DNA of 64,000 nt from Psammoneis japonica. Its lineage: Eukaryota. Shown one piece after another: positions 3,746 to 58,990 of the stretch (position 1 is its first letter; the number at the start of each line of letters is the position of its first letter). Under the pieces are notes generated by a model. It saw nothing but the letters and a program-made list of their open reading frames with translations, had not been told where the DNA came from and ran no database searches. A program made the translations under genes and the position numbers. The stretch spans positions 62,001 to 126,000 of the forward strand of contig QPGO01000137.1 of assembly GCA_008632985.1 (NCBI GenBank). Reading direction: 5' to 3'.

Positions 3746-5191
3746 ATGGCTGCGGCAATTGACCTTGAGGCGTTTTGCTGCGAGGGCTCTCACAGCAATT
3801 ATGATTCGTTCAAAGCTGGGAACGGGTTCGGCCCCTTCGTCATTCAAAGGAGCACTCTTTGCAACGAAATCGTGGGCTTGGCTTCTCCGATTGTTTCCAT
3901 TCATTTAAGTGGTTGCAAAGGTGCTGGGAAGACCACCCTGTTGAAATTGATCAGCAACGACCTCGTCAAAAATGGAAAGAGAGTCTATTTTTTTAAGAAA
4001 TCCAATGACATTGACATCTGCCAACGCGAAATTGGGTGCATTCTTGCCAAGAAAGAGGAGGCACACTTTCTGATTGATGAAACACAAGTGAATGTGAACT
4101 CGTCAATTTTCACGCTGTTGCTTAAAAATGATGAAGATCACCGCGTCACCACAATTGGAGCAGGTGTTCCTGCCTTCGAAACAGCCTCAAGTTCCTTTGC
4201 ATTGACGATTGCTGCGAATCACTTGTTCTTGACGTTGGAAGATCTTCAAATTGAGGGCGTGATTGACTTTTTAGCCGAGGATGTCATGGAGGCTAGCATT
4301 GGAGGTCGCATTGAGCACCTGCTGGAGACTGTGCGCTTGCATGTTGGAGGACACATCCACCCTTTGATGAGGCTTGCCGAACTGCTTGTGCCCAAACTCA
4401 AGACGGAGGGCCACTCCACCGATCGGGCCATCAGTCACTTGAATTCGGCCAAGTTTCGCACTTTGCTGCCTTTTCGGCTCCTTGCTTCCAGGATCACTCC
4501 AGCTTTGCAAGATGTCAACATCCGCACAGTTTTTTACCCAGAAGAATGTTGCCTTGGTCCAGAGGTTCAGCAACTACAAAAGCGTGGATTCTGTGACTAC
4601 AATGGCAGTGTGACATCGATGTTGCTTTTCGACCTTTATCTTGGGAATGTTGGGACCGCAAATTCCTGTCCTTTCACTGGTCTTAATGCTGGTGTTGTTG
4701 GTGTTCAGGAGCTGCTTTGTTGGGGTGTGCCGCGCATGTCTTGGACACACTACGAAGCCCATGGAGGGGCCGTCAAAGATGCGCTGACATTCGAATTGCT
4801 GAGAAAACTTTCAGACTTCAAGCCGCTAAAAGTTGTGCTTTTCAACCCTAAACTCGTTGCTGCTGGAATGGCAGCACGGCAACCTGACACACATTTTGAC
4901 TCTGCTGCACACTCTTGTGTCGAATGTGTGCTTGCCAAAGACAACACTCGGTCATCCAGACAAGACGTGGAGAAGCACATTTTGCGGTTCTTCACACATG
5001 ACAATGCTCAAACTGCGCACTGTGAAATTCAGGACGCCAACTTCGCAGTCCTGCACTTCCAAGACTGGGGAACGGCTCCAATGCAGCTGCAGGATGAAAT
5101 CTGTCGAAGGTCTTTCAACACAAGAGTCTTTGCTTTCTTGATGAAAACAAAGGAACTCTGTTTGGGTGACACGTGTCTTGCAAGCCATTAA
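3746..5191 (+). CDS. P-loop NTPase plus C-terminal PD-(D/E)xK-like nuclease (Crinkler/RHS-type NTPase-REase architecture); frame open but partly hypermutated, function doubtful
   Basis: Walker A GCKGAGKT, Walker B-like FLIDE, helical GGHIHP segment and C-terminal QPDTHF...VECVL. The ORF track extension to 3542 runs through the upstream TIR element, so ATG 3746 (MAAAIDL) is the likelier start. Confidence 0.6.
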   Translation: MAAAIDLEAFCCEGSHSNYDSFKAGNGFGPFVIQRSTLCNEIVGLASPIVSIHLSGCKGAGKTTLLKLISNDLVKNGKRVYFFKKSNDIDICQREIGCILAKKEEAHFLIDETQVNVNSSIFTLLLKNDEDHRVTTIGAGVPAFETASSSFALTIAANHLFLTLEDLQIEGVIDFLAEDVMEASIGGRIEHLLETVRLHVGGHIHPLMRLAELLVPKLKTEGHSTDRAISHLNSAKFRTLLPFRLLASRITPALQDVNIRTVFYPEECCLGPEVQQLQKRGFCDYNGSVTSMLLFDLYLGNVGTANSCPFTGLNAGVVGVQELLCWGVPRMSWTHYEAHGGAVKDALTFELLRKLSDFKPLKVVLFNPKLVAAGMAARQPDTHFDSAAHSCVECVLAKDNTRSSRQDVEKHILRFFTHDNAQTAHCEIQDANFAVLHFQDWGTAPMQLQDEICRRSFNTRVFAFLMKTKELCLGDTCLASH

Positions 5192-6169
5192 GAAGACCGC
5201 CCCATTTCTTCCCTCTTCGTGGCTCTGAACAGGAAAATTGCCCGAAACAGACAAATTTTTACCTCACTCAGATTAAGTCGAATAGACGGAATCTGTGATG
5301 CACAAAACACGCTGGTGAGAAACAGGCATGCCACAGCCAAAGTGAACCCAACACCAGTCAAGAGTTTTTCTGTGTCTTTTGCCGCAACCTCACGTTCTTG
5401 CTTCATTGATCTGACGCAATGGGCGCACCTGCTTGCCCTGCTTTGACCCGAGATGTGCTTTGTCTGTGAAATCCAAAATGCCCTGTCATGCAAAATGACT
5501 TCTGCAAACTGTTGGGCCTGCTGCCAAAGCACCCCTCTGGAGCAGTGCCACTTTGGCGCATGTTCTTTTGCATTCTTGGGCAACTGCGGCTTCAACTTGA
5601 TGTTTCTGCTTCATTCCCAGCCCTTGGATGTCCAGACAAATGTGCGCGCATGGTTCAAGGTTCAAGATGACAAGCTGTGATGCTGGAACTCCAAGGAAGG
5701 TCAGGTGGTGGCAACTTGTTTTTCAAGGAACAGCCTTGTTAAAAACATCATGTCACACTTCTTGACAGCAAGTGTTGCCATTTGTGCCATGGCATTTGGT
5801 GCTGACTTGACCATCAAATTCTGGCCTTGCACTTTTAAGGATGGATCATCCAGATGAGGCATTTCTTTAATTGGCTCGTGATTTTGCAATTTCCCTGCAC
5901 TTCGCTCGTGTTGTTTTGCGATGCCTCTGAGCACCCCCAAACACATGTGACTGTGTCCAGACCCCATGCATCAGGGCTGTTGGATCCATGTGTGAACTGC
6001 ACATTTCAACCTTCAAATGCCAGTTGTCAGATTTGGTGCAGTTGTCACATTCGACAAACCGCTGTTTTTTTTGCCAAAATCGCACTGCTTGTGGGAGACA
6101 AGCCACAACTTTCCAGGAAAAGCCGACAGTTGGCGTTTGACTGGCCACAGACATGTCTGCAGTCGTCAA

Positions 6170-6601
6170 GGTCATGGTGCGGGTGCAAAAGTGGGCCAGA
6201 TTCTACGTGCGCAGAGCTTGGCATGTTTTCCACACAAATCGCCAAAGTTGGCTCGCCAACTTGAACCCTCTCCAGGACAATGGAAACTTGGACATTTCAC
6301 ATGACAAAGTGTTTTGACTGCTCAATCACACTCTCCTCAACTTGTTTGGGAAGAGAAGTCACAAGTTTTCACAGGTTTCTGAGGACACACAACGAATCTA
6401 ATCAGAAAGGTGCCGAAATCGTGATGTTCGAGTTTTAAAGAGCCACACAAAACGAGTCCAAACACTTTGTCATGTGAAATGTCCAAGTTTCCATCATCCT
6501 GGAGAGGGCTCAAGTTGGTGAGCCAACTTTGGTGATTTGTGTAGAAAACATGCTAAGCTCTGCGTGCGTAGAATCTGGCCCACTTTTGCACCCGCACCAC
6601 C
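6170..6601. mobile_element. Foldback/MITE-like element with about 145 bp TIRs
   Basis: 6176-6319 is the reverse complement of about 6456-6599. Begins GG, ends CC, flanked by TCAA (6166-6169) and TCAA (6602-6605). Confidence 0.8.
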
Positions 6602-6605
6602 TCAA

Positions 6606-7104
6606 GGATGGATCTACATGCTGCGGTCTGTTTTTTGGGAGCTCGCAATTTTTGTAAAAACAACCCGGATGCATCGCAGCAAATGCGCGTGCATTCGCAA
6701 AAAAAATTTCAGTGATTGGTCGAACTTTGTCCATTCGCCAGACACCCCAGAATGCTCAAACGACAGGTGTGACCATGTGCGACTTTTGCCTTGACGACTG
6801 CAGATGTGTCCATGGCCAGTCAAATGCCACTCATCGGCATTTCCCGGAAAGTTGCTGCCAATCTCCCATGAGAAGCCCAATTTTAGCAAAAATTGGCGGT
6901 TTTTTTGACCTGACAACAGGGCATGGGTCGACAAGTGGCATTTGAAGCACTGAACGTGCAGCTCTTGTAGCCATCTGACAGCCCCTGTGAGGGTTTGACG
7001 AACGCAAAAGTGTTCGGGGGTGTTCCGAGGCAGGTCAAAACAACACGGTGAAGTGCGGGAAATGCGAGCCATTTTAAATTAGACCGCAGCACGTAGATCC
7101 ATCC
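6606..7104. mobile_element. About 500 bp non-autonomous TIR element, TTAA-type target
   Basis: TIR GGATGGATCTAC(A/G)TGCTGCGGTCT at both ends, flanked by TCAA (6602-6605) and TTGA (7105-7108). Confidence 0.8.
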
Positions 7105-9989
7105 TTGAGCTAAAGATCGCGCATGGTCACAACCATCGCCAACACATTCCATGATGTCTTTCGAAGGGACAAAGTTCGGCCCATCGCTGAAAACATTTTG
7201 TTGGCGAGCGTGCATCCAGTGCAAGAAATCCGGGTTTTTTCCAAAAAAATGCAAGCTCATGCACAAACAGACCTCATCTTGACGATCCATCCTCAAATCA
7301 TTCTCCTGTTTTGCTGACTCACCAGTGTTGTTAAGGGCGGCCATGCTGCTGGGTCAATTGCTGTCAGACGCTGATTTCAAAAACTTCGCACATTTGGCAA
7401 TTGTGGGGTGGAATTTCCGAGCAACTCTGTTGAGCCAAGCTTTGCTCCAAGATTTTCCTGCCAAAAGGATTTTCCTCACATTTTCCGTGCACTGCCAAAA
7501 AAATGTGCTCTCTGGAGCAGAGAGGAGCGGCACAATCCAGAAATCAGCACTCAAGTCAAGTGCCGCCAAAAAAATCAAAGACTGACATCATGATGTTTTC
7601 TTGCTGAACAGCTCAAAATCTTGTCAATCTGCTTCCACCAACCTGAGAACTGTTTGTTTGTAAGAAAACAAGCTCCCAGTGCAAGAAAATCTCAGTGGTC
7701 ATGCGCGCTGTTGCGCGAGTGAGACCCCATGCAGAACAGGTTGTTTGTGCTTTTCTGCATTCTCCGGAGTGACGTGCAGACCAGACTGAGATTGCCCGTA
7801 GAACGTCAGCACAAACAAGCAAAAAATCTGCTTCATTTTTCTTGTAAAATGGCCAAAATTCACTTTGCTCACCCGACATGATGTCAGTTTTTGAGTTTTT
7901 CAGTGGCACCTTGCTCAAGTTACAAAACAATTTGGCAAAAAAGTCATGAACAACTTGCTGCCCACTGCAACACCCCTCCCTCCTCCAAATTTCATTTTTA
8001 AAGTGGGTTCAGGAACATTCAAAAAAGGGCAATCCATTGCTGGCTGAATCTGGTGAGATGCCGGAAACAAGCTGAATTTGTTGTGCCAACTTTTGTTTTT
8101 CAAAGACATTTTGTTCTTGACAAAAAGTCACAGACAACCCATTGATGTGAACAATGCATTTGTTTGACATCAAGTGTGCAAGTCCTGTTCATCCCAGATT
8201 TTTTTTGTTTGAAGCAACCAGAAACAAGATGTTGGGTGCACACACAATTGTGTTGATGACAGCATTGAGGATGCTTGTTTGAAGATGATGTTTTCTGTCA
8301 AGATCAAGTCTTGAACAAGATTCAATGCTTCCACAAGAAGTCTTGCACTCAGTGCTTCAACACAGTGTCTTGCAACAAAGACTGTGTTCAAGAACTCACC
8401 GCACTTCAGAAAACATGTGGCACATTGCTGTCACACTTGGTGGAAAGCAGATTTTGTCCTTCTGCAGCAAGCAAGCAAATGACTTGCTCAATTGCCTGTC
8501 CCAATGAATTGTTGCAAATGCAAATTTTGACATGCCTGGCAGGATGGTGCTTGCCTTTTGTTTGTTCTTCAACAGTTGGGAACTGCTCAGAAAAACTTGC
8601 TGCCCCGCTGCATGTCAACAATGAGTCTGGCCATCAGGGCTCTTGTGTCACCCAACTGAGAGACCAAGCCACGTCAACAGCAGCAGTCTTGATTGCTTTG
8701 ACTGCAAGGAGGCCACCCAATTTCTGCCATTCTCAATCAAAACAATGAGCTTGCCAAGGCTCTTGGGTGGACACTCTCTGTGCTTGTTGCCACTGTGTTC
8801 ATCATCTGATGCAGCCATGGTGAGAAAATGCTGCCACTGCTTAGATTTTTGGCATGCATTGTTGTTGCTGCCTGTCCTCTTCCTCCTCTCACCAGGTTGA
8901 ATGCATTGGGTGCAAACTGGTGACACAAAGACAACAAACAGTGCAAGAACAACTTGGTGGCAGAGACAACAGATTTGTTGTGGAAGACACACACAGAGCC
9001 AGAGCTGCGATGTCATGAAATGGATGCCAAGGCCACCAAAGAGCAAAAAGAAGCAGTGTCTTGCACATGCAGCAGCCATCCTCATCTCACCAGGTTTGAT
9101 GCACTCTCTGTTTTTTCTTGGCAAACAATCAAGAAGAGAGGCACAACCATGGGGGAGGATTTGGATGGCAGTGAAGCTGCAGCACACAACTGTTGCATGC
9201 ATGTTCATGATTGCACATCATTTGTGTGTCAATTGTGCCACAGTCGTGGACACGTGCAAAGGACAGAACGATCACACAGAGTTGATCAGATGTCGAAAAT
9301 TGCAAATACAATCAATTGACAATGTTGACATCTTGCGTGTCAACAGCAATCGTGTCTGGACAATCTGTTGTCACAAATGCATTCTCCGAAAGGCCTTTTG
9401 TCTGTGGAAGCAGCACAGAAGCTTTGGGCCATTGAGAACTCATTCGGAGAAACCAAAAAATCACAGAGCAAAATTTAATCTCACAATTTTCACTTTTCAT
9501 GCTTGACTCCACTTTCATTTGTGCTCGTTCTTTGAGCACAGTGCATTGTGCATGCACACCACAGAAGGCAAAAACACGGAAAATGAAAATTTTGGCTGAT
9601 GTGCCTTTGCAAATTCTTCCATGAGCAGGCATGAAATGCACTGGTTCTGCTGGAATCGATTTCCGAGTGGAAGCAGCTCAATCCGAACAGTGCCTCAAGA
9701 TGGAACTCCATTTTTCATCTTCAAGACAAAAGGATTTGTTCCAATGCGATCCATTTCAAGCACCTCATGATCAAGGACTCTGCAAGTGCACAGCATTGTC
9801 AAAAATCCTCACCAAGTCATGGTTGGGCAGAATCTCAAGTGTTGAGTCAACCAGGTCCGAGAAATGCATCTGCCATGCAAGGAGAGACCATTGGAGAGAA
9901 TTGGGAGACCGAATCAACGAGCCTTGAGTCTGAAGACCAAGAAGAAAGTGTTGAAAAGTGCCTCAAGAGTCTCTTGTCTCATGTCTTCT

Positions 9990-12970
9990 GAGAAACCACA
10001 CTTCAGAATCAGAGTTGTTATTTTCGAGACAATCTGAAGAAACCAAAGTGCAAAAGGGTGGTTGGAATCAAAGATCCAACCACGGTGCAAGGCAATGCAG
10101 TGGTTGTTCACAAGACAGCACAAAGTCATGAAGCCATCATTGCAGGTCATCACATCAAATTTGCCACCTGCTGCAAGGGAAATCGTTTGTTCCACACTGC
10201 TGTGAAACTAAATGTTTGAGTTTGCAGGCAGGAATTTTCCCTTCAAACGACCGTTCAACATGTGCTTTGCAAACAACACGCGCTTGTTGTCAGTGTCAGC
10301 ACAGCTGGCAGATGTTTGAATGTGAGAAGCAGCGCAGTCTCTCATTTCCACGTCACCAGCATGATCAAGAGCACTGGCCAGGGAGGAAAAAACGCAAGTG
10401 TCATTTTGTCCTTGCAGGAATTTCACAGGTGGACCACTCATCAGCAAGTTGCTGTTTGATGGCATCAACACGTTTCCTTCCGGCAAGGAGCAACAACCAT
10501 CCCATGGCTTCAATTCTTTCAAATCTTTCCACACATCTGGAAACCAAAACTTAAAATTGTGCTCAGCCCAATCCAGGGTTGCATGCATGGGACGGTTCCC
10601 CTCCAAGCTGCAACCAATGAAATCAGCTCCCTGCCCAACAGGTGGAAGTTTTTGAATCTCCACTTCAGTCAATCTCTTCAGTTTGGCAATCTGTGGTGGG
10701 GGTTGCAAATCGATTCCACCTTGTCCTTAATCTCGTTCCTGCATTTTCGATTGAGTTGCTGGGGAACATTTTTGTTTTGTGTTTGGCACGTGTGACAAGG
10801 GCCGCATGCGTGTTCATGGAATGGCCATTCATTGCATTGCAACATTCATCAAACCATGGTTTGCACAACATGACGCCCTTGTTTCCTTCTGGAAAGCAAC
10901 CAAACAAGTGAGGAACAGATCCTTTGGAATCACCAGGATGCTGTTCCCGGCTGCTCCACGTTTTTGGATCAATCCACATGAGTTTTTTAACCTGCAACAT
11001 CTTTTGATTGTCTTCACATGCTTGCTCAAGTTGATCCCTTTCTTCTTTGTGTTGCACGTCTTTGCTCAACTGATGCCATGGAATGGCTCCTTTTGCCCTT
11101 GCCTTCGGCCTGGAGCTGTGAAGGCCAATGAGATCATCATCATTGCTCACTCCAGTGATGTCTTTCATGAGCTCCATCTGGCATCTGTGACTTGTGTCTC
11201 CCACTCTCTCCTTCTTCTCTGCCTTTGTGTCTCTGAGTGCCAAGTCTTCTGCAGCCTTGTCTTTGTCTTCTTCTTCCTCGTCTTCATTTTCCTCCTCGTC
11301 CTCAGTCAATTCATCCATGGCCCCAGCTTGATCTTGCTCCTCCTTGTTTTTGTCTTGCAGCTGCAACCTTGCAGTGCCAGCCTCAGCTTTTTGCAGGTCA
11401 CCCATCTCTTCAGTGCTGTCCTCCTCCTCTTCTGTTTCATCCATGTCTTCAGCACCCTCCTTCACCTCTTCCCTTTCCTCCTCCAACTCTGCCTTCTCAT
11501 TTGCATCCCATGTAAAAGCGTGATGCATGTGACGATGGCAACAAATCCTTCTGCAAAACTTGTGCCATGCAAGCCCAGGAGCTGCCTTGCACCAACCAGC
11601 TGGGTGAGCCGGTGGCTCCTTGCAGCAGTCCTCCCTTTTTGGCCCCTCGGGGAAGTGAACTTCAAAGATGTGCTTGTCATTGTTGACAGCATCCACTGGC
11701 TTGGAGTGTCACTGCGGTGTAGAAGGCTTGCACACCTGGTCCAGCCAACACAGACAGTCTGTGTCTTCATCAACATTGGGCAGCCACATCACATGGTTGT
11801 GCCACCAACCTGTGATGATGTCAAACAATGCCTCCGATGGCAGCATCTCCTTGGGGTCGCACGGCCCAAACGGGAAAATCCTCTGGCAGCCCATTGTGCA
11901 ACAGATGAGCACTTTGCATTTTGTGCAGCTGGGAAGCTTGGCAATGTGCATGTCTTCCTCCATGTCATCGTCTGGCTGTTCAAGCTTCTCCCTTTTGCAA
12001 CACTCATCGTGCAAAATGCAGTCATGGTTGCCAGACACATCGCCCTTCTTCAACTTCTTGCAGTTGGGGCATGGTTTGCGATGCTGCTTTTCATCCACCT
12101 GATTCCTCTGAGCAATTTTGTTGCAAACAGAGTGATGGTTGATGATTGCACCCCAGTGCTGTTTTGCAGATAAAACGGGACGACTTGTTTCACAGCGGAA
12201 CTTGACACATGCAATCCCTTCAAAGCCAACATTTCAAAATGGTTCTTGAATCCCTTCAGAGACTTGATTTGCCACCAACTTTTATGCACAACATTGCCAA
12301 AAGGCAGCCATGCTTTCTGCCTTAAATCTTTGGTCGATTTGTCAGGATCGCAGGCTTCCAGGTCTTGAGTGTTGAGCAAAGATTCCTTGTGGAATCGGAG
12401 CTGGGCATTGAGCAAATGACCAGCAACGCAGGTTCCTTCAGCAAGTGGTTCCTCCCAAAAGCCTTCATTTTGGCTGATCTCTGCTGTGATGTTTTCATGC
12501 TCTGGGCTGGAATGAGGCAATGGCAAAACAATTGCAGAGCTCATTGGAGTGATCGTCTTCCTTGCACACAGGGAAAGAGTGTTGCCTTTGTCCTTCTCCG
12601 TGAGATGCTCCCACTCCTCCCAGTGCTTGCGGACGTCCGCCAGGTCAGAACGTTCACTCATTGTGTCTGTGATGTCCTCGAAACCCAACACTCCCACGAA
12701 GTAAGACTTCAATGTCTTCTGACAATGAAGGTGTGCATCCAGCTTCTTGGCAACGCCACAGCAAATCGCTTGTTGGGCGAGTCCAATCAAAAAAGGACAA
12801 ACACCTCTTGCGCAAAAAATGCGCGTTTCGATGTATCCCGGCGCCCAAGGCACAAGTCGCCAACCTCGACGATGATACGAGCCTCAACAATAACATTCGC
12901 AACAGAAGATAGCGATAAACATCCTCTGTCGCCATTCTCCAGTGTTGCACGTTTCAAAATGAAACCCAAG
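9990..12970 (-). pseudogene. Relic of a large protein with an acidic low-complexity middle and a C-terminal papain-like fold
   Basis: Collinear minus-strand fragments 12050-12853, 11709-12098, 10665-11696 (E/D-rich), 10208-10708 (FLQGQNDTCVFSSLASAL) and 9914-10195 (NNHCIAL..WIFDSN), giving Q-C...H...D spacing. Confidence 0.5.
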
Positions 12971-30093: not shown

Positions 30094-30199
30094 TCTGATG
30101 TTGTTTCTGGTGAGCTGCTGTTGATATATGCCACTGCTTCCGCTGGCTGCTGGTCTGTGCCGCTGTTGCTGGATCTTTTTAATGCATCGCAGTGTCCGT

Positions 30200-39333: not shown

Positions 39334-39429
39334 ATCCATCATTGCAACCAGGCTCAATTGGAGTTTGTTCTTTCAGTGTGTGCTGCACTTGCAATGATTC
39401 ATGTGCATTGCCACTGTGTGTGTTGCCAC

Positions 39430-43819: not shown

Positions 43820-46210
43820 ATTGACCACTTGTCTTTCTTTGTGGGTGTGTGCCATTGCGTGCTGCATTGCCTGCACCATGCACAGAAGCAAGTGGCTGCT
43901 CGCAGGGCCCTGTGGCTGGAATTGATTTTTTGACATTTGGAGTGGATTTCCATGCAAGCAGCACAACACGTCACCAAGTTGAAGTTCATTTTGTTGGAGG
44001 GAAAACAAAAAGCATGAAAATTGTCATGTGCCTGGTCGCTCAACAATGGTGCTTGCAGCTTCTTGAAAATCCCAGGCTTTCAGCACTGCAACCCATGCCC
44101 ACCTCACCAACCCACCTGCAAAGCTCCCTGAGGGCCAAAGTGCAAAAGCCCATCATGTCTGATGTTTGAAAATCATTTGCATTAAAACACATGCATTGTT
44201 GGCTGTTCTTGGATTCTTGCATTCAGAATCAATGGATGCAAGCAGACCTGTCGTTCAGAATCAATGGATGCAAGCAGACCTGTGGGCAGAGCACTGCAAT
44301 GCAAAATTCAACATCAATGATGAGGGGGTCCAGATCATGGGTGGAAAGTTGAAGAAGCAGTGTGGCAGCATCAACGGTGCTTCAAATGTCATGGAAGAGA
44401 ACAGCGATGTTGCTGACCGAGTGAATCTGCACAAAACAGAACACTCATGCAGCCTCAAGCAGGGTGGAAAACAATCATGACAAATGTTTCTTCTTGTCAC
44501 TGTTGGCAAGCCCCATTGACACCTTTGTCCACCAGCAACTGGCAATGAATCTGTGGAAGTGTGGCTGCAAAGTGGAGCTGTCAAGACAAAATTTGGAACA
44601 GCTGCACTTGATTGCACTGAAATGCTGCCCGAATTTTCTGACGCCAATCCAGACATGTTCAACAGTGAAAAATCACAATGAGCAAAGAAGAGACAACAAC
44701 TTTTTGGAGAAAAAGAGAATGATGGGATGTCAGTTGAAGAGTTGGATTCCATCAGGCGACAATGTGCCTTGGTGTGACCACTGTGGGATTCAACTCGAGC
44801 ACGCAGCATTTTTGCACCAACCTTGGTTTGCCCAGATGATGTTGATGTGAAGACAGTTGCACAAGATTGCACTGACATTTTGTCTGCCATTGTCAATCAT
44901 CTTCGTGGCTGCAAGATGGTGTTGCCTGACCAGGATGACAAGAATCCAGCCACCGACTGTGAAAAGGTGTCCATTCAGCATCATGCACATTGCATCGTGG
45001 CAGCGCTTCAGGCTGCACTTGACAACCTCAAGGGGGAAGGAAAAGAGATTGAGGGTGACATGACTTGGGGTGAGTGCTGCAGGCATGCTGCAAAAAGACC
45101 AGAGGAGGATGACATTGCTGTCTGTGCAGCATTCTTGGCATTGGCATTTGGCACAAGCGGGAGATCACTTCCCTCAAAACACCAAACAAGGCAAACCCAC
45201 ACTCCCACCTTTTTGCAGCAACAATCCTGAAGTCAAGAATGCACTTGTTTGGCGTGCAATGCGCAATCTGAAAGATCTTTCAATTGAATTGATGCACAAG
45301 CACCTTCACCAGAAGACAATTCCTGCGCTGCTGCTGAGCGCAAAGAATGATGTTGTGGTGGAAGATGATGACAAATTCAAATTGGTCCATGAATTTGGAC
45401 CCATTGCACTCAACAAGGTTGTCAAAATGTTCAAGGCACACTGTTGTGCTCTTGATTTTGCTTTCAGGTTTGTCAACAGTGTTGCCAAAGGCAATGCTTT
45501 GAGCATTGAGGCATGAATTTTTGAAATCATGCAGCCACTGCAGAAATTGCATGGGGACAAAGATGTGATGGCCAATCACACTCGCTGTGAAGAATTTAGA
45601 GGCAACCACATTTTGCACCACATTGCATGGATTCCTGCACCACAAGGCCTCAGAACAATTCCTGCCATGCCACCAGGGCTGGCATTGGAGTGGCAGGGTG
45701 GCATGGCCACCACACCAGTGATGCAAATGACTGTCATGCATGTTTGATGGCTCGCACCATTTTTGGGGCTGCAGCAAGGTGCACGCACACTCTTTTTTGT
45801 CCAATTTGCTGCCAAAATGGTGCATCACACAAACTCGCTTGTTGTTTGATGTGTTTTTCCAATGTGGCTGTTTGGTGTGCAATTCACAACAAATTCTCTT
45901 TGCACAAAGCTCAGTGCATTTTTCAACAAGCCATGCCCCAGTTTTGCAGCACTTTCAAGCTCTTCTGAAACACAGTTCCATGCACCCATTGCAGGGAATT
46001 TGTCAATTTTTTAGGATGTCTCCATGACCTGGAATGTCCTTGATGATCATTCTCTGAATCACAACAATTTTTTTGCACTGAACAACCCATGCCATTCCAA
46101 ACTCCGAGGGCCACACACTCTCAAATTCACCAGACCAACTGCCTGAATGCCCGACCCCCCAACCGATGGACACAAAACAGTCTGCAATCACCAACCACTG
46201 AGTGGTCAAT
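43820..46210. mobile_element. About 2.4 kb TIR element with a decayed plus-strand ORF (about 44150-45740)
   Basis: Ends ATTGACCACT...AGTGGTCAAT are shared with 3115-3675. Internal coding remnant LPPFCSNNPEVKNALV...LKDLSIELMHKHLH; no catalytic DDE motif recognised. Confidence 0.7.
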
Positions 46211-49200
46211 CATGACAGTGTGCCGGCATGCACCATGTGTGTGACTTGGATGCCTGTCAGTCATGCGTGTGCTGACATCATCTGGGGGCAGCATCTGTTG
46301 GCTTGGTGGCAGGCTCAGGGTTTTGCTGGGGAGTCCCCCAGGGCAGGAAATCAAAAACAGAGGAACGGGGGGGGGGGGGGGTTGATGAGTGCCATGTGTG
46401 TTGGCAGCACCTGTGTGATGGAAGTGGCTCACAACCCATTTCTCCAGACACAAAATGAACTGGGGGCCCCCTGTCCCCCCAAAAACCCTGAGCCTGCTTG
46501 GTGCTGGGGTTGCTGATGCTGATGCCACTCACCTGACAAGTGGGAATGAAGAAGACTGTGGCTGGTGACTCCTCTTGTGACATTGCACTGAACATGACTC
46601 CAAAGCACATTGTCAAAGTGCTTGGGGCGCAAATCAATGACCACAAGGATCGCAGGATGCGTGCACTGCTTTCAGCTTGCATCAGTCAGCACCTTTCAGA
46701 AGGCCAGTTGTTTGCTTCTTTGGCATGCAATGCAAGCTTCTGACAAATGCAGCTTGTCTGGAATGGAATTTTTTCTCACATCCATTTTGTCCTCAATGTG
46801 GGTTCTCGAGCTTTGCTGCAGCAAGGCACTGTGATTGGCACCACGCCAGCCTTGGTGCTGTTCCCACCCCCTGTTTTTTTTTCTTGAACATCTTTTTTTT
46901 TGCTGGTGGCAAACCCAATGTTTGCATCTGGATGTTGGCCCATGTTGCATTTGGCACAATCAATGCCAGTGCATTGTTCATCTGTGAAACTGCAGTGTGT
47001 CAAAAATGTGTGCTCTGTGCACAAAAAACCATTGAACGGGAAGAACCTGTGTGCAATTGTGTGCCTTCAAACACAAATGTTTGACATTTCAAATTTTCCA
47101 CAACTTGTCAAAACTCAATGACAGTGGCGACTGTGTGAGCAGCACAACATGCTCCATCAACAACCATGAACTCACCATGACACTTGCATGTGTCAACAGC
47201 TTGGCCACAATCAACCTCACATGTGCGCACCTTGCTGTGCTTTGAAATTGATTGATCGCAGAGTGAAAACAGCTGAAATGTTCAATTTGTTGCCCATTGC
47301 TGTTTGACTGCACAAGCCAACAACAAGCCTGTTGCATTCATGCATGTCAATTCTGCTGCACATGAGTTCACAAGATGTGACACACTGTTGATTGTTGTGG
47401 CTCTCTTGAAGGCAACACCATTGAGAAAACAGCAACAGAGTCACCATGGCAAGGTGGTTTCCACGGTTTCTGGTTGTGGCAGACCCCCGCCATGGCAAAA
47501 TTGTGCTGAAACTGAGTTGTGCTTGTTGAGTTGGCATGGCTGTTGCATCCCACCATTCTTGGCAGCAGGGCCGGCAGCAAAAATCAACTGCAATTTGGCA
47601 GGGAAAAAATGGCTGAGGGCACTGTTGGTTGCCACCCAAGTCAATGTCTGCAGTGGAAATTGCCTGCACTTTTTTCTTGCTTGCAGGGGCTGTTGTTTCT
47701 TTTCCAACAACAGCTTTGCATTTCCTTGACACCAAATCATCTCTTTCACTCAAACAAGTTTCAACAGTGATGAGCAAGAACTCATGATGTTTCCCCTCCT
47801 TAAAACGCATTGTCTGAGCAACAGAAGTGACACATTCAATGGAGTGCCCAATGTGCCATTTGTCTGCTGCAGCAAATTTGTTCTGATCTTGTTCTGTTCT
47901 TCAGAAACATGTGTGGCTCAAAGCACCCTGCAATCTTGTTTCAAAGCAACACCTGCACTTGCCACTTCCAAAAGTGTGGGAAATTTGTTGTTGTCTTGTT
48001 CTCTCAGTCACTCACTCATGATGCTGGCTCACACAAGCAACATCTGGGGCTCAGTGTCTCTGTGTCACTTGATGTGTTCCAGCCCCAGGTGACATGCAAA
48101 ACAACACACCATTTGGGGCAATGTGCTCCTCATGCATGGAGAATGTTCACAAAACATGCTCAAACAGATGCGTTTTCAAACTGAGATGTGGAGTGCAAAC
48201 ACTCAAACAATTTTTTTTTGTTGGTGCTCAAGGAGTCTTCATGGGACACATCAAAATTTCTGTTGAATCAGCGCTGATTGTTCAATGGCACATTGGCCAT
48301 GACAAGGCCTTTGCAGGTGGAACACCTGACACCAGTGAACATTGTGAAGAAAAGTTTCTGTGGCCATCCAGAACAGCAAAGCAATGGCGCACGAGTCTTC
48401 AAGATTTTGGTCAAAAATCATTTTTGCATTGTTGTGGCTTGTTTGTTGCAATGAAAAACATTGACAGCACACAAACAGCGACATTGCTGCACTGATGCAA
48501 GTTTTGTCAGTGTTGCAAAACATTCATGCTTGGATGAGCCCATGGTTTTGATGGGGTGGAGGCATGGCCACAAGTCAGAGGCTGCACAAAAATCATGTAA
48601 ACATGTCATTTTTGGCTTGTGCTTGGTTCATGCACAGCTGGAGCAATTTGGTTGAAAGTGATTTCCGTGCCTGGCACAGAGCAGAGGCAGTGTGTGGCAG
48701 TGCATGACACAGCTTTGGCAGGGTCAGTCTTTTTTCATTTTTGGGCCCGAAGTTGCATTGACACAGACAACAAGTGAGGCTGTTCATGAAGAGCTCATTG
48801 TTGAGAAACAACATCGGGACATGTGCTTCCACAAGATTTTTGAAATTCTGTGTGTGATTGCACTGGATTTCTGCAAGGAAGAACTGCCAACACAAAACAT
48901 CAGCAACCATCAGCAAAACACAGTGTTCATTGGACACCATTTTCTCAAAATCTTTTGGGGATCATGACTCAGTCTCATGGCCATGTGAGTGCAAGTTTTG
49001 CCTGACAAGTGAAAATGTGCTTTAGACTGGGTCATGCCCCCATTGAGCACAATGACTGGCATTGGAAGAGCACCGTGGTCCCCCATGCTTCACTGTGTTG
49101 TTTCATTGTCAAAAGGGCATGTGTCAGACCATTTTGCTCATGAGTCACCACTCGTGACTTAGAGCCCAAAAGTTTTCCTGCACAGAAAATGCACCAGGAG

Positions 49201-49585
49201 CCCAGTTGTCTTCTGTTTGCTCCCATTTTGGGAGTGTGGGTGAACAGATCTGCCAGCACCTGACACCAGCATTTGTGTTTGTGAAGCAAGAAACAAACAA
49301 CTGTGAAACCTTCTGCAGCACTGCAAAACAGCATTGTGAATTTGTTCCTCCACCTCGTTGCCATTGTTTCATTGGGATGTCAAGGGTTTTTTGAGTGGAC
49401 AATGCAGGGGGAGAGCCATTTGTGAAAATCTTGTCTGGGGCATTGAAGCACCTGACAGCTGACTGTCAGAATCTGCTGACAACATTCGCCAAGGTGCTTG
49501 GACTGACAAAGAGCTCAGAGTTGTTGCTGTGAAGTAAACTCACAAATTGTGAATGCAGTGGAGCAATTCTCCATTTTGCACAGAG

Positions 49586-49980
49586 CAGACGCGTTCCAGG
49601 TCTAGGTAGGTGGGACCTCGCACTACTGAACTGTGACATCGACAGTTTTTTGAATCACGTCGTATGTCGCGCACGTAGATTTCTACGTGATTTTTTCGAT
49701 ATTTTGTGTCATTTTACGGTACACTTATTGAGCGATCCGTCCAACTTTTGACATTTTTTGTTACAGCGCGATTCTATAATGTCTTAAGAATCGCGTAGGG
49801 CAGGCGCATTTGCAGAAACGTCGAGTGGCAAGAGGCATAATTGCACCACAAACTTGGCAGTTCATTTGATGTTGAAGATAAACACATCCATTAATTAAAT
49901 TCTCGTACTGCGGAGCTCGCACGTAGAATTCTACGGGCCCAATGTCACACGGAGTCCCACCTAGGACTGGAACCCGTCAG
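49586..49980. mobile_element. About 395 bp MITE retaining TpA and CpG inside block E
   Basis: Left GACGCGTTCCAGGTCTAGGTAGGTGGGAC versus right GTCCCACCTAGGACTGGAACCCGTC. The interior has many TA and CG, unlike both flanks. Confidence 0.8.
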
Positions 49981-50179
49981 CATTGCATGCATCACTTTCA
50001 ATGCTCAATGGAGGGATTTTGAATGCTTTGCACTCCTTTTGAATTGCAGTTGATTGGGTTTGTTGACAGGGGGGCATTGGATTTAATGTTTGCAATGTCC
50101 TCATGACTGAATGTCCTCAAATGCCACATTGTTTGATGCTCCCTCTCATTTGGGACATGGGGCAATTGCCCTTGAACAC

Positions 50180-51600
50180 AACTCAGCCAATCAAAAATAA
50201 AGTCTTCACTTTTGGGACACTGCACTTGACACCCAGCAGACTCTGAGCAAGCCTTGCTGCCCCATCACTGGCAGACACAATGAGAGCAGAACATCTGCGC
50301 TCGCCAGCTTTGTGAGACAATTGGCAAATTGCTCCTTTGTGTTGATGGGATGGGCAGAGATTTCTCCCTTGGACACATGGTCTCTGAAGTGATGCAGCTT
50401 TGCATTCAAGTGTTTGTTTCTTGGACAGCAGCATTTGTGGGTCCTTGCAATTCAAAAGCTCTGCTGTTGCCCTCAAACACACAACAATGAACCATCTGCT
50501 TGCAGGTGTGCACCAGGAGCCTGTTGTGCTTCATTTCCTTGAGCAACTGCATGACAGGAACTTTGCTTCTCAATGCATGTGATGAGCCAGTGTCTGGCTT
50601 GTTTCTGCCTGCACAGATTCCAACTCAGGTGTGGTGCAGCATGCATGCAGACAAAAGGTCATTTTTGTCATGCCCTTTGTGACATTCAAAGGCTGCAACA
50701 CGTCGCCGTGATGCATTGGCTCTTGTTGGCAGCTGTGTGTTGCACTCCTCCCCATGTGTCACGCGTCCATGCGGCTCTTTGCCAACGTGCACTGACACTG
50801 CACAGTTTTGGCAGAACAGTGTGGGTGTGCACGAAGGAACACACAGAACTGCACAGAGTTTTGTGCGTTCGACAGTGATCAACGTTGCTGCAGACAACTC
50901 CCACTCAGGGTTTCGAACCCCCAGCCTCCTGCCTGATGGTTGCGATGAACCACTCCGCTGTGAATTCACAACGCAGCATGCATGCAGACAAAAGGTTGTT
51001 TTTGTCACGCCCTTTGTGACATTTAAAGGCTGCAACACGTCGCCGTGATGCATTGACTCTTGTTGGCAGCTGTGTGTTGCAGCGGCACAAAGTCCTTCAA
51101 ATTTTCTTCACCAACCTCAAACCCCTTTGGTGTTTGCACATAAATCTTGCACTCTGCTGGAGCCTGTGGGAAAGCCAAAACATGATCCAGCTGCTTGGCG
51201 TGCCAGTTGTGCACTGCTGTCATGGCAAATGGCATGGCGCTGAGTTCCGGGATGCCGCTGGGGCACATGTTTTGCCGCTGTGGACCCCTTCTCTCATTCT
51301 GGATCTTTCTGTGTTCAGTCTTGCCTTCCATTTCTTGACAGCATGGGCAAGGACATCCCACTTTCATTTCATCTGCTGCGCAGCTGGGGAAGTGTCTTTT
51401 TTTTGTCAGCCACTGCTGATCTTGGAACATTGGCAAAATTTTCATTTTTCATTTGTGCCTCAACCTCTTTGCACATTGCCTTGATGAGTTCCTTGCAAAT
51501 CTTGTTGTTTCATCACTTGGTGTGTTGTGTGCATGGTGTTGGGGACTGTTGGAGCTTTGCACATGTCAGAAGAGCACAGGATTGGTGTCATCCAAGATGG
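50180..51600 (-). mobile_element. Ty1/copia RT-RNase H relic of another lineage, interrupted
   Basis: WHAKQLDHVLAFPQAPAECKIYVQTPKGFE (RT) and KHLNAKLHHFRDHV...INTKEQFANCLTK (RNase H C-terminus). Confidence 0.8.
50636..51081 (+). repeat. About 109 bp direct repeat pair (50636-50744 and 50973-51081), possibly LTR-derived
   Basis: Near-identical copies 337 bp apart. Differences include ATTTAAAG/ATTCAAAG and GTCACGCC/GTCATGCC. Confidence 0.8.
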
Positions 51601-51749
51601 GTGATTCATCATGATGCACAGAGAAATGGCTGCTGGCAAAAATGTCTCTCCCTCAATGCCCCCTTTGGCATCTGCACTGAGCTCAGCTGCCATTGCTTGT
51701 GCCAGCCACTCAACTGGTCAGCTCTGTCACACCCTGATCTTGTGCTCAC

Positions 51750-52430
51750 CTCTTGTGTCCTTCTTGGCACTCTGGGCAGATCAGACTTGCCCTCCTGCTG
51801 TGGAGGTTCTTCTTTTGCGGCCCTCAACAACCTGGAGGTCCTGAGTGCTGATGCACAGAATGCCCATCTGAGTGCACACACCAAGGAAAAGTGTTGCACT
51901 GCTGCTGGACTGGGGTTTGGTGAGCAGAATGAAGGAAGGCCAGCCACAATTGTCCCAGCCTTGCAGGGACTCAAGTTGTCAGGTGCACAATTCCAAGAAC
52001 ATGTGGTGGCAACTTTGCATGAGACAGTGGATTTGAGTCATGCAGAGCAGATCCAGATGTCTGGATGAGGCCTGCAGTTGAGCCAGATGGCTTCAAGTGC
52101 TGGGAGCATGCACTTGTTCATGTGTGGACAATTCACCATGCATCTCCCATGAACCTCCAAAAGTCATGGACTGTGTGAGCTCTGGGTGCACATTGAAGGA
52201 TGGAAGTGTCTGCAAACCAGAAGAGCACCTGGGTGCACAGATCAGAAAATGTCAGCTGTCTGATGCAGAGGGTGAGATGTGCTGGGCCATGTCCTCTAAC
52301 TTGCACATTGAAAGGGCATTGGCTGATGTTGAAGTGGAGCTCAAGAAAACTGGGGGGCACCTTCCGACAAAGGCACTCACATTCTTGAGCTCAGGACACA
52401 GGCCTGAACTGGACAGTTCACTGGAGCTGG
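51750..52430 (+). mobile_element. Copia RT fragment, close relative of 26520-27100
   Basis: Long near-identical stretch CATGAACCTCCAAAAGTCATGGACTGTGTGAGCTCTGGG...GAGCTCAGGACA in both places. Confidence 0.85.
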
Positions 52431-52479
52431 CTTGTTTGGAGCCAACATCCAATCCATGGCCTGCAAATCCTCAAGGAAT

Positions 52480-54000
52480 CAAGGAACCACCTGCACCAGA
52501 GGGAGCTTGCAGGTCCTTGAGATTGCTCTGTAAGACCTCCACTTGCACACCAAGCTTGTTGGCCTCCCAGCCCAGATTTTGCTCATGCTTCTGTCCATGG
52601 TCTGGATCTGATTCTGGACTGCCTCCAACTTGTCCATGACAGTTGTTGCACCTCCAGCTCCAACCGCATTTGCATTGCCCACACCCTGGGCTTCAAGGTC
52701 AACTGGCTGATTCACCACTCATCAGAGCTGTCCACCCATTTCACATTTGAAGGCACCAAACTTGGCCTCTGACACCTTGTTGCATGCCTCATGAAAGATG
52801 CCTGGAACCTGATGCTTCAAACCCTTGGCCCATGCTGACACCACTCTGGTGAGCTGGTTCTCCAGTTTTACCCTGGCTTGCACCATGCCAGATTGCCTCC
52901 TGCACAGCTCCTGGGGGTGCTTCTCCAGTCACCCAAGCAGTCAAATTTGCCACTGCACCCCACAGGGTGGGGGCAACAATGTCAGACAAGAGACTGGGAG
53001 GTGGCTTGCCCACTGTGGCTTCAAGTTGCTCAACCTTCCTGCCCACCATCACCAGGGTTTGTTCTGAATCCTCTGCAGACTCCCATGCAAAGGTGCTCAG
53101 ATCAACCACTGCTTTCCCAACCTCAGTGAGAGCTGGCTCCATCCTTGAGATGACATGCCCCAGAGTCCTCACATCCTTGGTGAGCCAGTCTGAAGAACTG
53201 CACATGAGGCGCTGATGCAGGGTGAACTCTCCAATGGGGTCAGAGTCATCCCCATGCACTCCTTCCCACTTGCTGTCCTTTTTCCTCAGAGTTTTGAAGT
53301 CAGAAGCTTTGCAAAACTGGGCCGCTGGCTCCTTCACTCCCACCCTGGTGGCCATGTCTTTTGCCTCTGTCACTGCTGGGAAATGCTGGTGCCACTCGAG
53401 CAAAGCCTTCCCACTTGCCAAGCAGGTTGGACAAAATCTTGGCCACCTTGACTGTGGGGTCCACAAACCCAGTGTCCATGGACTTCAAGATGACCACATG
53501 CCCTTGGTTTGGGACAACCATGGCACCACCCTTGTAATTGACAAGGCACTCTGCTGCACATTTCAAACAAAAGGTTGCCCCGACTCCCTTGATGCCCAAA
53601 CACTTGCCATCTTGGGAGGAAACAAACACAACTTTGTGACCAGGAACTGCGGGTGACTGCTGGGATGCACCTTTTCCTGAGTCACCATTGGGGAACCCAA
53701 AATGCCTGGGCTCAGATCTAATGAATTAGAGGGCAGTGCTGTTCCGCCCAATGTCTCTTTGGCTGAAGTGCCCACAGCAACATCGTCCTCAAAAACAGGA
53801 CACCTCCGGAATGACCCGGAGGATCTTCCTCCTCCAGCGATGCTTCTCCAAGTTCTGTCTTGTCAACTGGCTCAACCACCACTTCAATGTCATCAGAATG
53901 ACCCTCGGAAGTGAGCCCCGAGTTCAATGACTGAGCAGCATGACCCACCCACCCACCCGCCCCTCTCCCGATGCCCGTGCGTGGGTTCTTGCAAAAGAGA
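52480..54000 (-). pseudogene. Relic ORF, possibly gag-like ORF1 of a tyrosine-recombinase (DIRS/Ngaro-type) retroelement
   Basis: Fragments CLGIKGVGATFCLK..AECLV and IVAPTLWGAVANL with a coiled-coil-like end. The family assignment is from memory only. Confidence 0.3.
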
Positions 54001-54791
54001 AGAATGAGAAGAGTGAGATGAGAGCAGTGCAGGGATGCAACCCTCATCCTCAAGTTGACACCCAATGACAAGGAACACATCATCATTGAAACCATCTTTT
54101 GAAGAAATCAGACACAGGAGAGAACAGCCAGAGAGAGAAAGAGAAAATTTCAACTTTGTTGGCTTCGCTTGATCCAGCCATGCTGATCCAGGCGTTCATG
54201 TCTCAAAAGAGCTGGAAGAGGCTGAAGTGGCCTCCATTGAAGCTCACATGAATGCTTGGGGGGGGCTTGGGGGGGGGGGGGGGACCCTTGCATTCATGGG
54301 ATGACGAAGGTTCGGTTTGTCACAATTGCGAGGACCAGGATCAGCCTCCGAAGATCAGGCGGGCGTGCTCTTGGAGCATCGTCTCCATCTATCCATCTAC
54401 TTGAACATCCATCTGTCTACTCTCTAGCTGGCAGAGAGTAGCTGGAGAGGGCCCTGCCGCTGTCTAAACTACTTGGGTGCCGCACCACGAACATGAAAGA
54501 GGGAGTCCGGTGTACGTGTGTGCAGCACGTACCGCACAGTCGTCTGCTCTCTATCTGCTCTACTGTGGCAGCTACAGCAGTGCAGTGCATGGAGCCAGCT
54601 AGCCACTCTAGCTAGCCAGGGCCTAGAGAGTAGCTGCTGCCACTCTCTCTAGAGCAGTGGCCAGTCATGTGCTCCTCTGTGCCACCCAAACTAAAGAGTC
54701 AATGCTGCAGGCCTAGACATGTGTTTCTCTTGTCTCATGCTGCACAAATCAATGCTTCTGCTATCCTCCACGAGTCACGAGCGACATCCCA

Positions 54792-57711: not shown

Positions 57712-58169
57712 AGAAAAATGGAACCGGGGAACATGGTGCCATGCTGTGGTTGGGGCAAATTGTTGTCGCGTAATCTCAAAGTTGGATCATGCCTTCGCTC
57801 TTGTAGTGCGGATGTGGCAATCCGTGTACAAGTCTATGCTCCTGTAGCACATAGCAGCACAGAACAATTTTCTGTTAATCGCGCGATAGGTGTCGTTTCA
57901 CTTCATCCTCTCTAGACAGTAGAGAAGCGCTTACTGGCATTGACTTTGATTTCTAGAGAAGCTGTCAGCTTCGACCATAGCTAGATGGTCTTACAAATAT
58001 TCAGTTCACTCCCCTGTTGACGGTCTTGGAGTCTTCGGCATGAATGAGAAGCGAAGCAGTTACCAAGAACGCTTTGAGATCCACTGCACTCTGTTGATGC
58101 TTCTGAAAAAAAGCCAATGACCAGGACTCAGTTTTCTTACAACAGCATTCTGTAGACAAGCTGCGGTTT

Positions 58170-58990
58170 CACAAATGGCCATGGCACAATCTTCACCAGG
58201 CAAGGTGGCATTGTGTTGGCATGTTGGCAAGAATTTCTTGAAAAACAACAAGAGTGTGACTCGGGTCAATGTGCAACCAGAACCATTGCCACAGTTTCTC
58301 TTTTGAGGTCTTTCAAGGAGGCTGACAGTGGGGCCACCCATGCAGATTGGCTTTGTGTCATCAAGTGTTTCACTGTGGCTCTTTAGATTTTTGAGAATCA
58401 CAAACATGTCATCTCTGCCAGTGTGAAAATGGTCACTTTCATCCAGACAGTGGTTGTGTGCACAAGCCCACACACTTTGAACCTTTTGCCACATGTTGAT
58501 GTGTGCTTCTGGGCCCAAATGGGTCAAATCAACATCTCTGACCTGTGGGTCCATTGTGTTGAATGCCACCACAAAGCTGTCACACCTGCAAACCCATGTT
58601 TCCCAAACAGCTTGCAAAACTCCTGTCAACTCAAAAGCGCACACTCCATGCAGAGCAATTTCCACTCATTTGTTGCAGACATGACAATTTTCTTGAGTGC
58701 CTTGCAAGCATTCATGCTCCCCTCTGTGCCCAACCCAGGGCTCTGTCAGTGCTTGTTGGAAATCATGTTTGCTGAACAGGAATGAAAGAAAGTTGCATCA
58801 CAAGCATGCCTCACCTTGCCTTGTTGATCTCTGGCACCACCATGAGGACAAGTCTCCATGGGCAGCTCTTGGAGAGAGCAGATGACTTGTTGTTGACTCG
58901 CTGGTTTCTTGCACAGCTCTGTGTCTGCTTGGGAGCTGTTGTTCCACATGGCTGGTTCCAAGAACATTGCCAGGAGCACCACTGAGCCAA
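58170..58990 (-). pseudogene. Hypermutated partial duplicate of the GT31 gene at 32287-33471
   Basis: Collinear nucleotide match to about 32570-33340. GPEAHINMWQKVQSVWACAHNHCLD versus GPEAYINMWQKVRSMWAYAHDHYLD. Confidence 0.95.

Follow-up and report, generated by a model that had tools for sequence, protein, structure and literature searches.

A 64-kb stretch of Psammoneis japonica DNA (positions 62,001 to 126,000 of contig QPGO01000137.1, assembly GCA_008632985.1; hereafter the window) is a mosaic of long blocks, in which the dinucleotide TpA is nearly erased, and of islands, in which it persists. We analysed here which TAs survive, in which direction the others change, and what kind of mutator may be responsible. 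The window has a G+C content of 47%, and its 2-kb steps display TpA observed/expected (o/e) ratios of either 0.01-0.19 or 0.3-0.66; in the low-TpA steps, CpA and TpG rise up to 1.5-2.1 and CpG falls to 0.09-0.67. A two-state hidden Markov model on TA positions, run over the whole window, delimited seven blocks (45,495 bp, 71% of the window, 153 TA, TpA o/e 0.027-0.076, CpG o/e 0.14-0.48, CpA/TpG 1.66-2.05) and seven islands (18,505 bp, 756 TA, TpA o/e 0.50-0.78, CpG o/e 0.83-1.44). In all seven blocks the loss of TpA is coupled to a gain of CpA+TpG in clustered windows, and the counts of TA and CG per 500 bp covary (Spearman 0.75). The blocks, and the two copies of a putative glycosyltransferase gene on which part of the analysis rests, are the following:

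1..12833, TA-erased block: 67 TA, TpA o/e 0.076, CpG o/e 0.48, CpA/TpG 1.66
18192..21911, TA-erased block: 6 TA in 3720 bp, TpA o/e 0.027, CpG o/e 0.21
24622..28744, TA-erased block: 9 TA, TpA o/e 0.033, CpG o/e 0.17; includes the repeat copy 26504-27100
30181..31845, TA-erased block: 5 TA, TpA o/e 0.054, CpG o/e 0.41
34646..49602, TA-erased block, the largest: 43 TA in 14,957 bp, TpA o/e 0.041, CpG o/e 0.26; a transposase relic lies inside
49963..54389, TA-erased block: 10 TA, TpA o/e 0.038, CpG o/e 0.20; includes the repeat copy 51815-52400
58154..61923, TA-erased block: 13 TA, TpA o/e 0.048, CpG o/e 0.14; starts 17 bp ahead of the mutated GT31 fragment
32290..33582, minus strand, GT31 (C1GALT1/Fringe-like) open frame in an island: intact-looking, the unmutated reference of the pair
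58171..58930, plus strand, hypermutated GT31 fragment in a block: same window orientation as 32569-33330

Within the first block, the stretch 3001-8000 is half-erased: 48 TA remain, none of them RTAY, while CpG is near normal, so that the loss of TA seems to run ahead of the loss of CpG. As an outside control, we used 830 one-kb windows from 80 metagenome loci (473 kb) that encode proteins related to the GT31 of the window. In this control, TpA o/e is 0.67 at the median and 0.33 at the 1% quantile, and the blocks lie far beneath. No TA-erased block was found in these 80 loci, where the lone window below 0.25 displayed no CA/TG gain; given how few repeats the control contigs contain, this absence does not speak against the process in other diatoms.

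The erasure leaves its mark on the reading frames. Blocks and islands differ in stop words per kb per strand (TAA 1.74 versus 9.67; TAG 0.82 versus 9.16), whereas TGA stands at 25.2 in blocks and 19.05 in islands. Since TAA and TAG disappear and no in-frame stops arise in their place, long open frames without meaning abound in the blocks: 148 frames of at least 110 aa, overlapping and in all six frames, lie in 45 kb of blocks, and gene callers are liable to take such frames of dead block DNA for genes. Pfam returned only two matches for the 148 block frames and left 146 without a match; none of the window's frames yielded a deaminase domain. One of the two matches, above its cut-off of 27.6 bits, is:

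40837..41379, minus strand, relic of a Mutator-like (MULE) transposase: PF10551, E = 1.6e-8, 35.3 bits

Copy number was read from X1, the only public sequencing run that contains the stretch (share 0.79), whose contigs were aligned to positions 1-20000; two other runs of the same sample contain next to nothing of it, and no RNA run is listed. Single-copy depth over this range is about 56-76. All seven island bins stand at 56.4 and none is multi-copy, as opposed to 17 of the 22 bins in blocks (summed depth 192 to 17,665), comprising 14 of the 19 bins of block 1..12833 (192 to 17,665) and the portion of block 18192..21911 up to 20000 (1254-6587). Some block parts are single-copy. The evidence on a targeting of foreign or mobile DNA is thus mixed, with multi-copy bins and one MULE relic on one side, yet 146 of 148 frames without a Pfam match and some single-copy parts on the other.

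TpA loss in a GT31 pair and in a fresh patch

The frame 32290-33582 has 224 relatives, every named one of which is a diatom (Amphora, Nitzschia, Thalassiosira, Skeletonema, Seminavis, Entomoneis, Mayamaea), with best identities of 45-48%. Their source annotation is glycoprotein-N-acetylgalactosamine 3-beta-galactosyltransferase, and the frame scores 0.98 in the atlas to a galactosyltransferase cluster (Fringe/Galactosyl_T), while a Pfam search of this frame gave no match. The naming of the diatom relatives and the atlas match make the label GT31, which we take to be the applicable CAZy number, a reasonable one. A second frame, 62190-63362, with a LON substrate-binding domain, has its best named relative in Seminavis robusta (47% identity).

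The island copy (32569-33330) and the block copy (58171-58930) share 80.8% identity, rising to 95.3% in purine/pyrimidine code, and only the block copy is mutated. None of 20 TAs is kept: 11 became CA, six became TG and three changed otherwise. CpG is kept at 2 of 31 sites (15 to CA, 11 to TG). The direction of change differs between flank classes much as the initial annotation had described for this pair. The 11 RTAR sites changed to CA (8), TG (2) or CT (1), that is T>C in 9 of 11, the figure it had given; a CTAC site went to TG, in line with its A>G claim for YTAY, while the other CTAC went to GA; and RTAY went either way, as it had stated (CA 3, TG 3, TT 1). The pair has no YTAR site and is hence silent on resistance. 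A>G was found at 18 of 40 TA, 5 of 92 AA, 5 of 103 GA and 18 of 133 CA, and C>T outside CpG in the block copy at 19 of 133 CA, 12 of 93 CC and 6 of 84 CT. The sole TA of the block copy is a TTAG, where the island copy reads TCAG.

Comparison of the window with X1 revealed a second case, in island DNA:

16767..17601, patch of TA-to-CA/TG differences between the window and X1, inside the orphan frame 16229-17800 (minus strand)

Over positions 1-20000, the 3538 aligned X1 contigs display 227 transitions and 43 transversions. Four single-copy block contigs show 0 differences from the window, indicating that the TA-poor sequence is not an artefact of assembly or base calling. A 5962-bp single-copy contig covering island DNA (12712-18673) carries 11 differences, all in 16768-17601: ten are TA in the window and TG (6) or CA (4) in X1, and the eleventh is a TG to CG. 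TAs changed at 10 of 25 sites in the patch versus 0 of 192 in the rest of the contig (Fisher 6e-11). The share changed was 4/6 for RTAY, 4/7 for YTAY, 1/5 for RTAR and 1/7 for YTAR. Counted by half-site, it was 4/8 for TAT, 4/16 for TAC, 2/18 for TAG and 0/8 for TAA, and TAY (8/24) exceeded TAR (2/26, p = 0.035). The other listed single-copy differences are all pyrimidine-purine (Y-R) transitions, namely TG or CA in the window against CG in X1 at 2610 and 4221, TG against TA at 5160, and TA against CA at 12283. The products in the patch follow the order TG, four CA, five TG (P = 10/210), a lead too weak to build on, and strand-coordinated runs of CA versus TG were not found in the saturated blocks (runs z = +2.9, dispersion 1.02).

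Flanking bases, direction and strand-wise rates

Survival, taken as the block-to-island ratio, was computed for all 16 NTAN words from 152 block TAs and 749 island TAs. It was highest for TTAA (0.44), TTAG (0.25) and CTAA (0.23), followed by TTAC (0.11), GTAA (0.10), GTAG and CTAC (0.07 each), CTAG (0.06), TTAT (0.056), ATAA (0.044), CTAT and GTAC (0.023 each), ATAG (0.011) and ATAC (0.007); ATAT and GTAT were left at 0 of 46 and 0 of 38 island-equivalents. Grouped by flank class, the counts are:

YTAR: 84 in blocks, 142 in islands, survival 0.24
YTAY: 28 in blocks, 176 in islands, survival 0.065
RTAR: 36 in blocks, 233 in islands, survival 0.063
RTAY: 4 in blocks, 198 in islands, survival 0.008

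The difference between YTAR, the mixed classes and RTAY is strong over all blocks (chi-square 102, p = 6.8e-23), in the strong blocks alone (60/40/4, p = 1.5e-18) and in the half-erased stretch 3001-8000 alone (23/24/0, p = 1.3e-7), and YTAR makes up 0.50-1.00 of the TAs in 9 of 9 block pieces versus 0.18-0.23 in 7 of 7 islands. Scaling TA to all N-(TA+CA+TG+CG)-N words, a sum immune to the mutation process, leaves the pattern as it is. The claim of the initial annotation that survivors are mainly YTAR thus stands (84 of 152 block TAs, 142 of 749 island TAs), with the correction that CTAG, which it had counted among them, is not resistant; the resistant contexts are TTAA and TTTAAA. The effect extends one base further. 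Among survivor half-sites, A occupies 52% of +1 and 53-54% of +2 positions, compared with 30-31% of +2 positions at island TAs and 26% in the flanks of block TG, which are themselves uniform (A 23-26%); the effect is faint at +3 (p = 2e-4) and gone at +4. The unconverted ratio is 0.34 for TA|AA, 0.10-0.16 for TA|AC, TA|AT and TA|AG, and 0.02-0.03 for TA|TT, TA|TC, TA|TG, TA|CT and TA|CC. An A at +2 protects 2-3 fold.

Survival alone is blind to the difference between a 3' preference and a 5' preference on the opposite strand, which the direction of change discriminates. Sites were polarised by pooling 12 repeat pairs and taking the TA-bearing copy as ancestral; they include the following inverted pair (79.5% identity, 89.5% in purine/pyrimidine code):

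3115..3565, repeat copy: inverted partner of 45767-46210; depth about 5400
45767..46210, repeat copy: inverted partner of 3115-3565, and the more heavily mutated

At non-palindromic words, 21 of 28 sites in the 12 pairs change as a 3'-flank model predicts; with the patch (6 of 7) and the other X1 sites (3 of 6) added, the tally reaches 30 of 41 polarised sites (p = 0.002), and the log-likelihood favours a 3'-flank model (-23.7) over no preference (-28.4) and over a 5'-flank model (-45.4). The products left in the blocks tell the same: in 5 of 6 non-palindromic flank classes, NTGN exceeds or falls short of NCAN as predicted, TG making up 72% for T..C and 67% for T..T, and CA 67-72% for A..A and G..A. 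Read on the strand where A turns into G, the rule is T-A-[T>C>G>>A].

These results are captured by a model in which the rate r on each strand is set by the 3' neighbour of the A and the survival of N1-TA-N4 is exp(-(r[N4] + r[complement of N1])). With four parameters it fits the 16 NTAN cells with a residual deviance of 8.6. The rates, with 95% intervals from 300 bootstrap replicates over 1-kb chunks, of which at least 99.7% kept the order, are:

3' neighbour T: rate 2.82 (2.34-3.53)
3' neighbour C: rate 1.79 (1.54-2.19)
3' neighbour G: rate 1.14 (0.87-1.40)
3' neighbour A: rate 0.39 (0.18-0.64)

The survival of the mixed classes (0.064) is close to the geometric mean of 0.24 and 0.008, as expected of two independent half-sites. 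Recognition of a palindromic duplex site (RTAY) was considered and rejected, as the mixed class matches the product of its half-sites and direction follows the half-site. A steady-state model gives the identical ranking (T 1 : C 0.26 : G 0.12 : A 0.05) with a poorer fit (deviance 24.1). The ranking T > C > G >> A is robust; the sizes of the ratios are not. The patch, drawn from other sites and another kind of data, gives the same order T > C > G > A as the survivors. On these grounds, the enzyme-like preference for T-A-pyrimidine proposed in the initial annotation is supported as a dependence on the 3' base, seen in survivors, direction and patch, and is too coarse as a pyrimidine/purine dichotomy (four-rate versus Y/R model, 2dLL = 46.3, 2 df). 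The two outcomes that it had named as fatal, equal depletion of all NTAN words and a direction indifferent to flanks, did not occur: depletion is unequal (four-rate versus single-rate model, 2dLL = 172.5, 3 df), and direction depends on the flanks.

Candidate mechanisms and known systems

We consider it probable that a mutator acts at the level of DNA in repeat-rich, CpG-depleted domains, converting TpA to TpG or CpA on each strand at T-A-N, likely by deamination of adenine. It would be confined to such domains, which are probably methylated and silenced, of a diatom-type nuclear genome. Each strand would be attacked separately at 5'-T-A-N-3', with a rate set by the 3' base (T > C > G >> A) and lowered a further 2-3 fold by an A at +2, so that the survival of a duplex TA would be the product of two half-site survivals. 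RTAY would go first and in either direction, RTAR would become RCAR and YTAY would become YTGY, with TTAA and TTTAAA longest-lived. The chemistry that we judge most likely is an enzymatic conversion of adenine to hypoxanthine in DNA, which would be read as G. Ordinary CpG decay would proceed in the same blocks at a slower pace, and the two losses together may funnel Y-R steps into CA and TG, with CA<->TG swaps passing through short-lived TA or CG. DNA of any origin is affected (a DNA-transposon relic, a host-gene fragment, single-copy block parts), and A>G/T>C is restricted to TpA (10 of 11 differences in the patch; in the GT31 pair, A>G at 18 of 40 TA versus 5 of 92 AA).

Several points weigh against this reading. 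Islands merely serve as a proxy for the original word content of the blocks. Of the 41 polarised sites, 11 go the wrong way, the six further X1 sites split 3:3, and the flank class A..G/C..T has a product excess of the wrong sign. Many survivors may be re-created TAs, which makes the absolute rate ratios uncertain, at 1 : 0.63 : 0.40 : 0.14 or 1 : 0.26 : 0.12 : 0.05 depending on the model. The X1 differences listed are 40 of 270; the polarity of the patch, with the window's TA as ancestral, is assumed, and X1 may be the window's own source sample, in which case the patch may be an allele and not a new event. Finally, A>G at T-A-Y is T>C at R-T-A on the opposite strand, so that sequence does not separate the attacked base, and deamination is what we infer from it.

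This last point leaves room for a thymine target, in our view a rather unlikely one. Oxidised thymines such as 5-hydroxymethyluracil (5hmU) and 5-formyluracil (5fU) mispair, and a T-modifying or oxidising activity, for instance a TET/JBP-type dioxygenase acting at 5'-[A>G>C>>T]-T-A-3', would yield T>C through mispairing with G; this is formally identical to the adenine reading in every sequence test. No positive evidence speaks for it, and Mettrop et al. (bioRxiv 10.64898/2026.01.13.699255), in the accessible sections of their preprint, read a comparable case in Bigelowiella natans as A-deamination, also without proof.

It is improbable that the pattern reflects context-biased creation of new TAs, for example by C>T at T-C-A yielding TTA, instead of biased destruction. 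Non-CpG C>T is frequent in the GT31 block copy, so many block TAs may be re-created, and the lone TTAG of that copy is TCAG in the island copy. Yet the patch measures loss directly and gives the same ranking, the direction of loss is flank-dependent, and RTAY is already absent among the 48 TAs of the half-mutated stretch, most of which must be original.

Editing of mobile-element RNA from A to I by an ADAR-like or ADAT-like enzyme, fixed by reverse transcription, is more doubtful still. The blocks are multi-copy, and a U at -1 is preferred by ADAR and in fungal ADAT2/3 mRNA editing according to the accessible sections of PMC9600606. By the same source, ADAR disfavours G at -1 and slightly favours G or A at +1, and fungal ADAT2/ADAT3 (Tad2/Tad3) editing, whose substrate is RNA, favours hairpin loops, with a strong U at -1, A and G enriched and C and U depleted at +1. 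The order T > C > G >> A found here reverses these +1 preferences, and the affected substrate is genomic DNA on both strands; the likeness lies in the strong T at -1 (the TA specificity), a position that is the dominant determinant in the fungal system, in an A read as G, and in a role for the neighbouring bases. Moreover, the strands are about equally affected in every block (TG fraction 0.508, dispersion 1.02), and the changes extend to a DNA-transposon relic, a fragment of a host gene, block DNA in single copy and one single-copy frame.

Polymerase (pol) eta makes A>G at WA motifs, and error-prone repair synthesis by a pol-eta-like enzyme, an option raised in the initial annotation, would leave AA>AG raised; the GT31 pair displays the contrary (AA 5/92, TA 18/40), and 10 of 11 patch changes lie at TA, which makes this origin hard to credit. 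That there is no mutator at all, and that the blocks stem from selection against UpA/TpA, from GC-biased gene conversion or from an artefact of sequencing or base calling, deserves the least credence: a mild TpA shortage is general (median o/e 0.67 in diatom-type metagenome windows), but the blocks at 0.03-0.08 lie far under the control's 1% quantile of 0.33, in decayed non-coding repeats both strands are hit, specific words change without any general AT-to-GC shift, and X1 contigs reproduce the block sequence exactly.

A literature search for TpA-specific hypermutation in diatoms found no report, and the only printed analogue found is the TpA hypermutation of integrated viral DNA in B. natans (Mettrop et al., bioRxiv 10.64898/2026.01.13.699255). 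According to the accessible sections of that preprint, de novo mutations in two integrated viral regions number 231, of which 230 are A>G/T>C, all at TpA, and 124 TpA-poor clusters occur genome-wide; the authors propose a defence akin to RIP (repeat-induced point mutation), with an ADAT2-like adenosine deaminase as candidate. The two cases share A>G/T>C almost exclusively at TpA, giving TpG or CpA, the regional character and the coupled gain of CpA+TpG, and a further likeness may lie in the transposon-type domains enriched among TpA-poor sequences there. They differ in the host, a rhizarian there as opposed to a window whose genes have diatom relatives, and in degree, which is mild there (Rho 0.45 in the region of nucleocytoplasmic large DNA virus (NCLDV) origin, with a 5% cut-off of 0.43) and reaches 0.03-0.08 over 71% of the window here. 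CpG decay in the same regions is seen here and goes unreported in those sections; the words flank, context and trinucleotide have 0 occurrences in the preprint's main text, which also holds neither the +1/+2 signature nor the per-strand model.

RIP of ascomycetes makes TpA from CpA/TpG, creates stop codons, hits both repeat copies and is linked to cytosine methylation. The window resembles it in the dinucleotide-specific transition hypermutation of repeats and in sharply bounded blocks beside normal genes. The direction, by contrast, is opposite (block TpA/ApT 0.01-0.2), TA is lost and TAA/TAG are erased, and the GT31 pair is mutated in one copy only. Bacterial TadA acts on an A with 5' U and 3' C, in the anticodon loop U-A-C-G, and evolved variants deaminate A in single-stranded DNA; we know of no natural DNA-acting TadA. 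The link to TadA raised in the initial annotation stays tentative and the fit is loose: the T at -1 matches, at +1 C (1.79) comes second to T (2.82), and TACG is less converted than TACT and TACC (unconverted ratio 0.089 versus 0.020-0.026), a comparison confounded by CpG decay. Diatom transposons carry 5-methylcytosine (5mC), and some diatoms have a RID-related DNMT4 of unknown function, according to the accessible part of PMC9998398; the methylation fits the CpG decay of the blocks and is silent on TpA.

New here are the flank fingerprint, the saturation in diatom-type DNA and the fresh kilobase patch. A wider reading, which we put forward tentatively, is a diatom 'inverse RIP': a natural enzyme would edit A:T to G:C in chromosomal DNA, on each strand at 5'-T-A-[T>C>G>>A] in silenced repeats, fast enough for a kilobase burst between two data sets of one organism, and would be the same system as in the chlorarachniophyte B. 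natans, an old genome defence of the stramenopile-alveolate-rhizarian (SAR) lineage. If this is true, the enzyme would be the first natural editor of adenine in DNA, and the fingerprint the key to identifying it. The flank rule (+1 T > C > G >> A, +2 not A, independent strands) speaks against mechanisms of the ADAR, fungal ADAT and pol eta kind, and allows a direct comparison with the 231 B. natans de novo mutations and with candidate enzymes in recombinant form. Judging by the saturation over most of this 64-kb diatom-type stretch, major marine primary producers may have a widespread genome defence that has gone unrecognised. To our knowledge, all adenine base editors in use derive from laboratory-evolved TadA, and an enzyme from nature that edits A to G in DNA would hold practical interest.

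Further observations in the window

The 524-aa frame 16229-17800 (minus strand), in which the patch lies, has no relatives, no Pfam family and no atlas match (best 0.77); it may be young or foreign sequence at the onset of erasure, or an off-target. In the half-mutated stretch, the 554-aa frame 3527-5188 (plus strand) has a weak match, below cut-off, to a P-loop/STAND NTPase (PF25199, E = 9.7e-5), and is single-copy by X1 depth (64.6) with multi-copy DNA on both sides. The same stretch holds nested inverted repeats, 6175-6319/6455-6599 (93% complementary) and 5891-6172/6788-7062 (about 70-78%); they form a large palindromic structure that may represent transposon ends or a foldback element. 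Farther along the first block, 8672-10672 belongs to a very abundant repeat family (summed depth 2989-17,665 versus about 60 for single copy), other copies of which keep CG or TA at several places where the window copy has TG or CA.

CpG survival in the blocks is itself flank-dependent (chi-square 36, p = 4e-5), at 0.56-0.57 for CCGG and GCGC, 0.26 for TCGA and 0.22 for ACGA/TCGT, G+C-rich flanks being protective. Between the GT31 gene and the largest block, 33501-34500 has 37% G+C and 84 TA per kb (o/e 0.84), which makes the TA contrast across the boundary at 34645 extreme.

Sites with CA in one copy and TG in the other number 17 in the GT31 pair, where about 10 are expected by rough arithmetic from the pair's rates, and 24 of 124 Y-R steps in the pair 26504-27100/51815-52400. 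Such discordance amounts to two transitions at a single dinucleotide and fits either repeated passage through unstable TA/CG or independent resolution of an ancestral TA/CG in each copy. The latter pair and the GT31 copies have a common order and almost equal spacings (25.3 and 25.6 kb), and the 5.5 kb between the two repeat pairs show no similarity. This arrangement may be an old segmental duplication with a replaced interior or, alternatively, a coincidence of transposon fragments.

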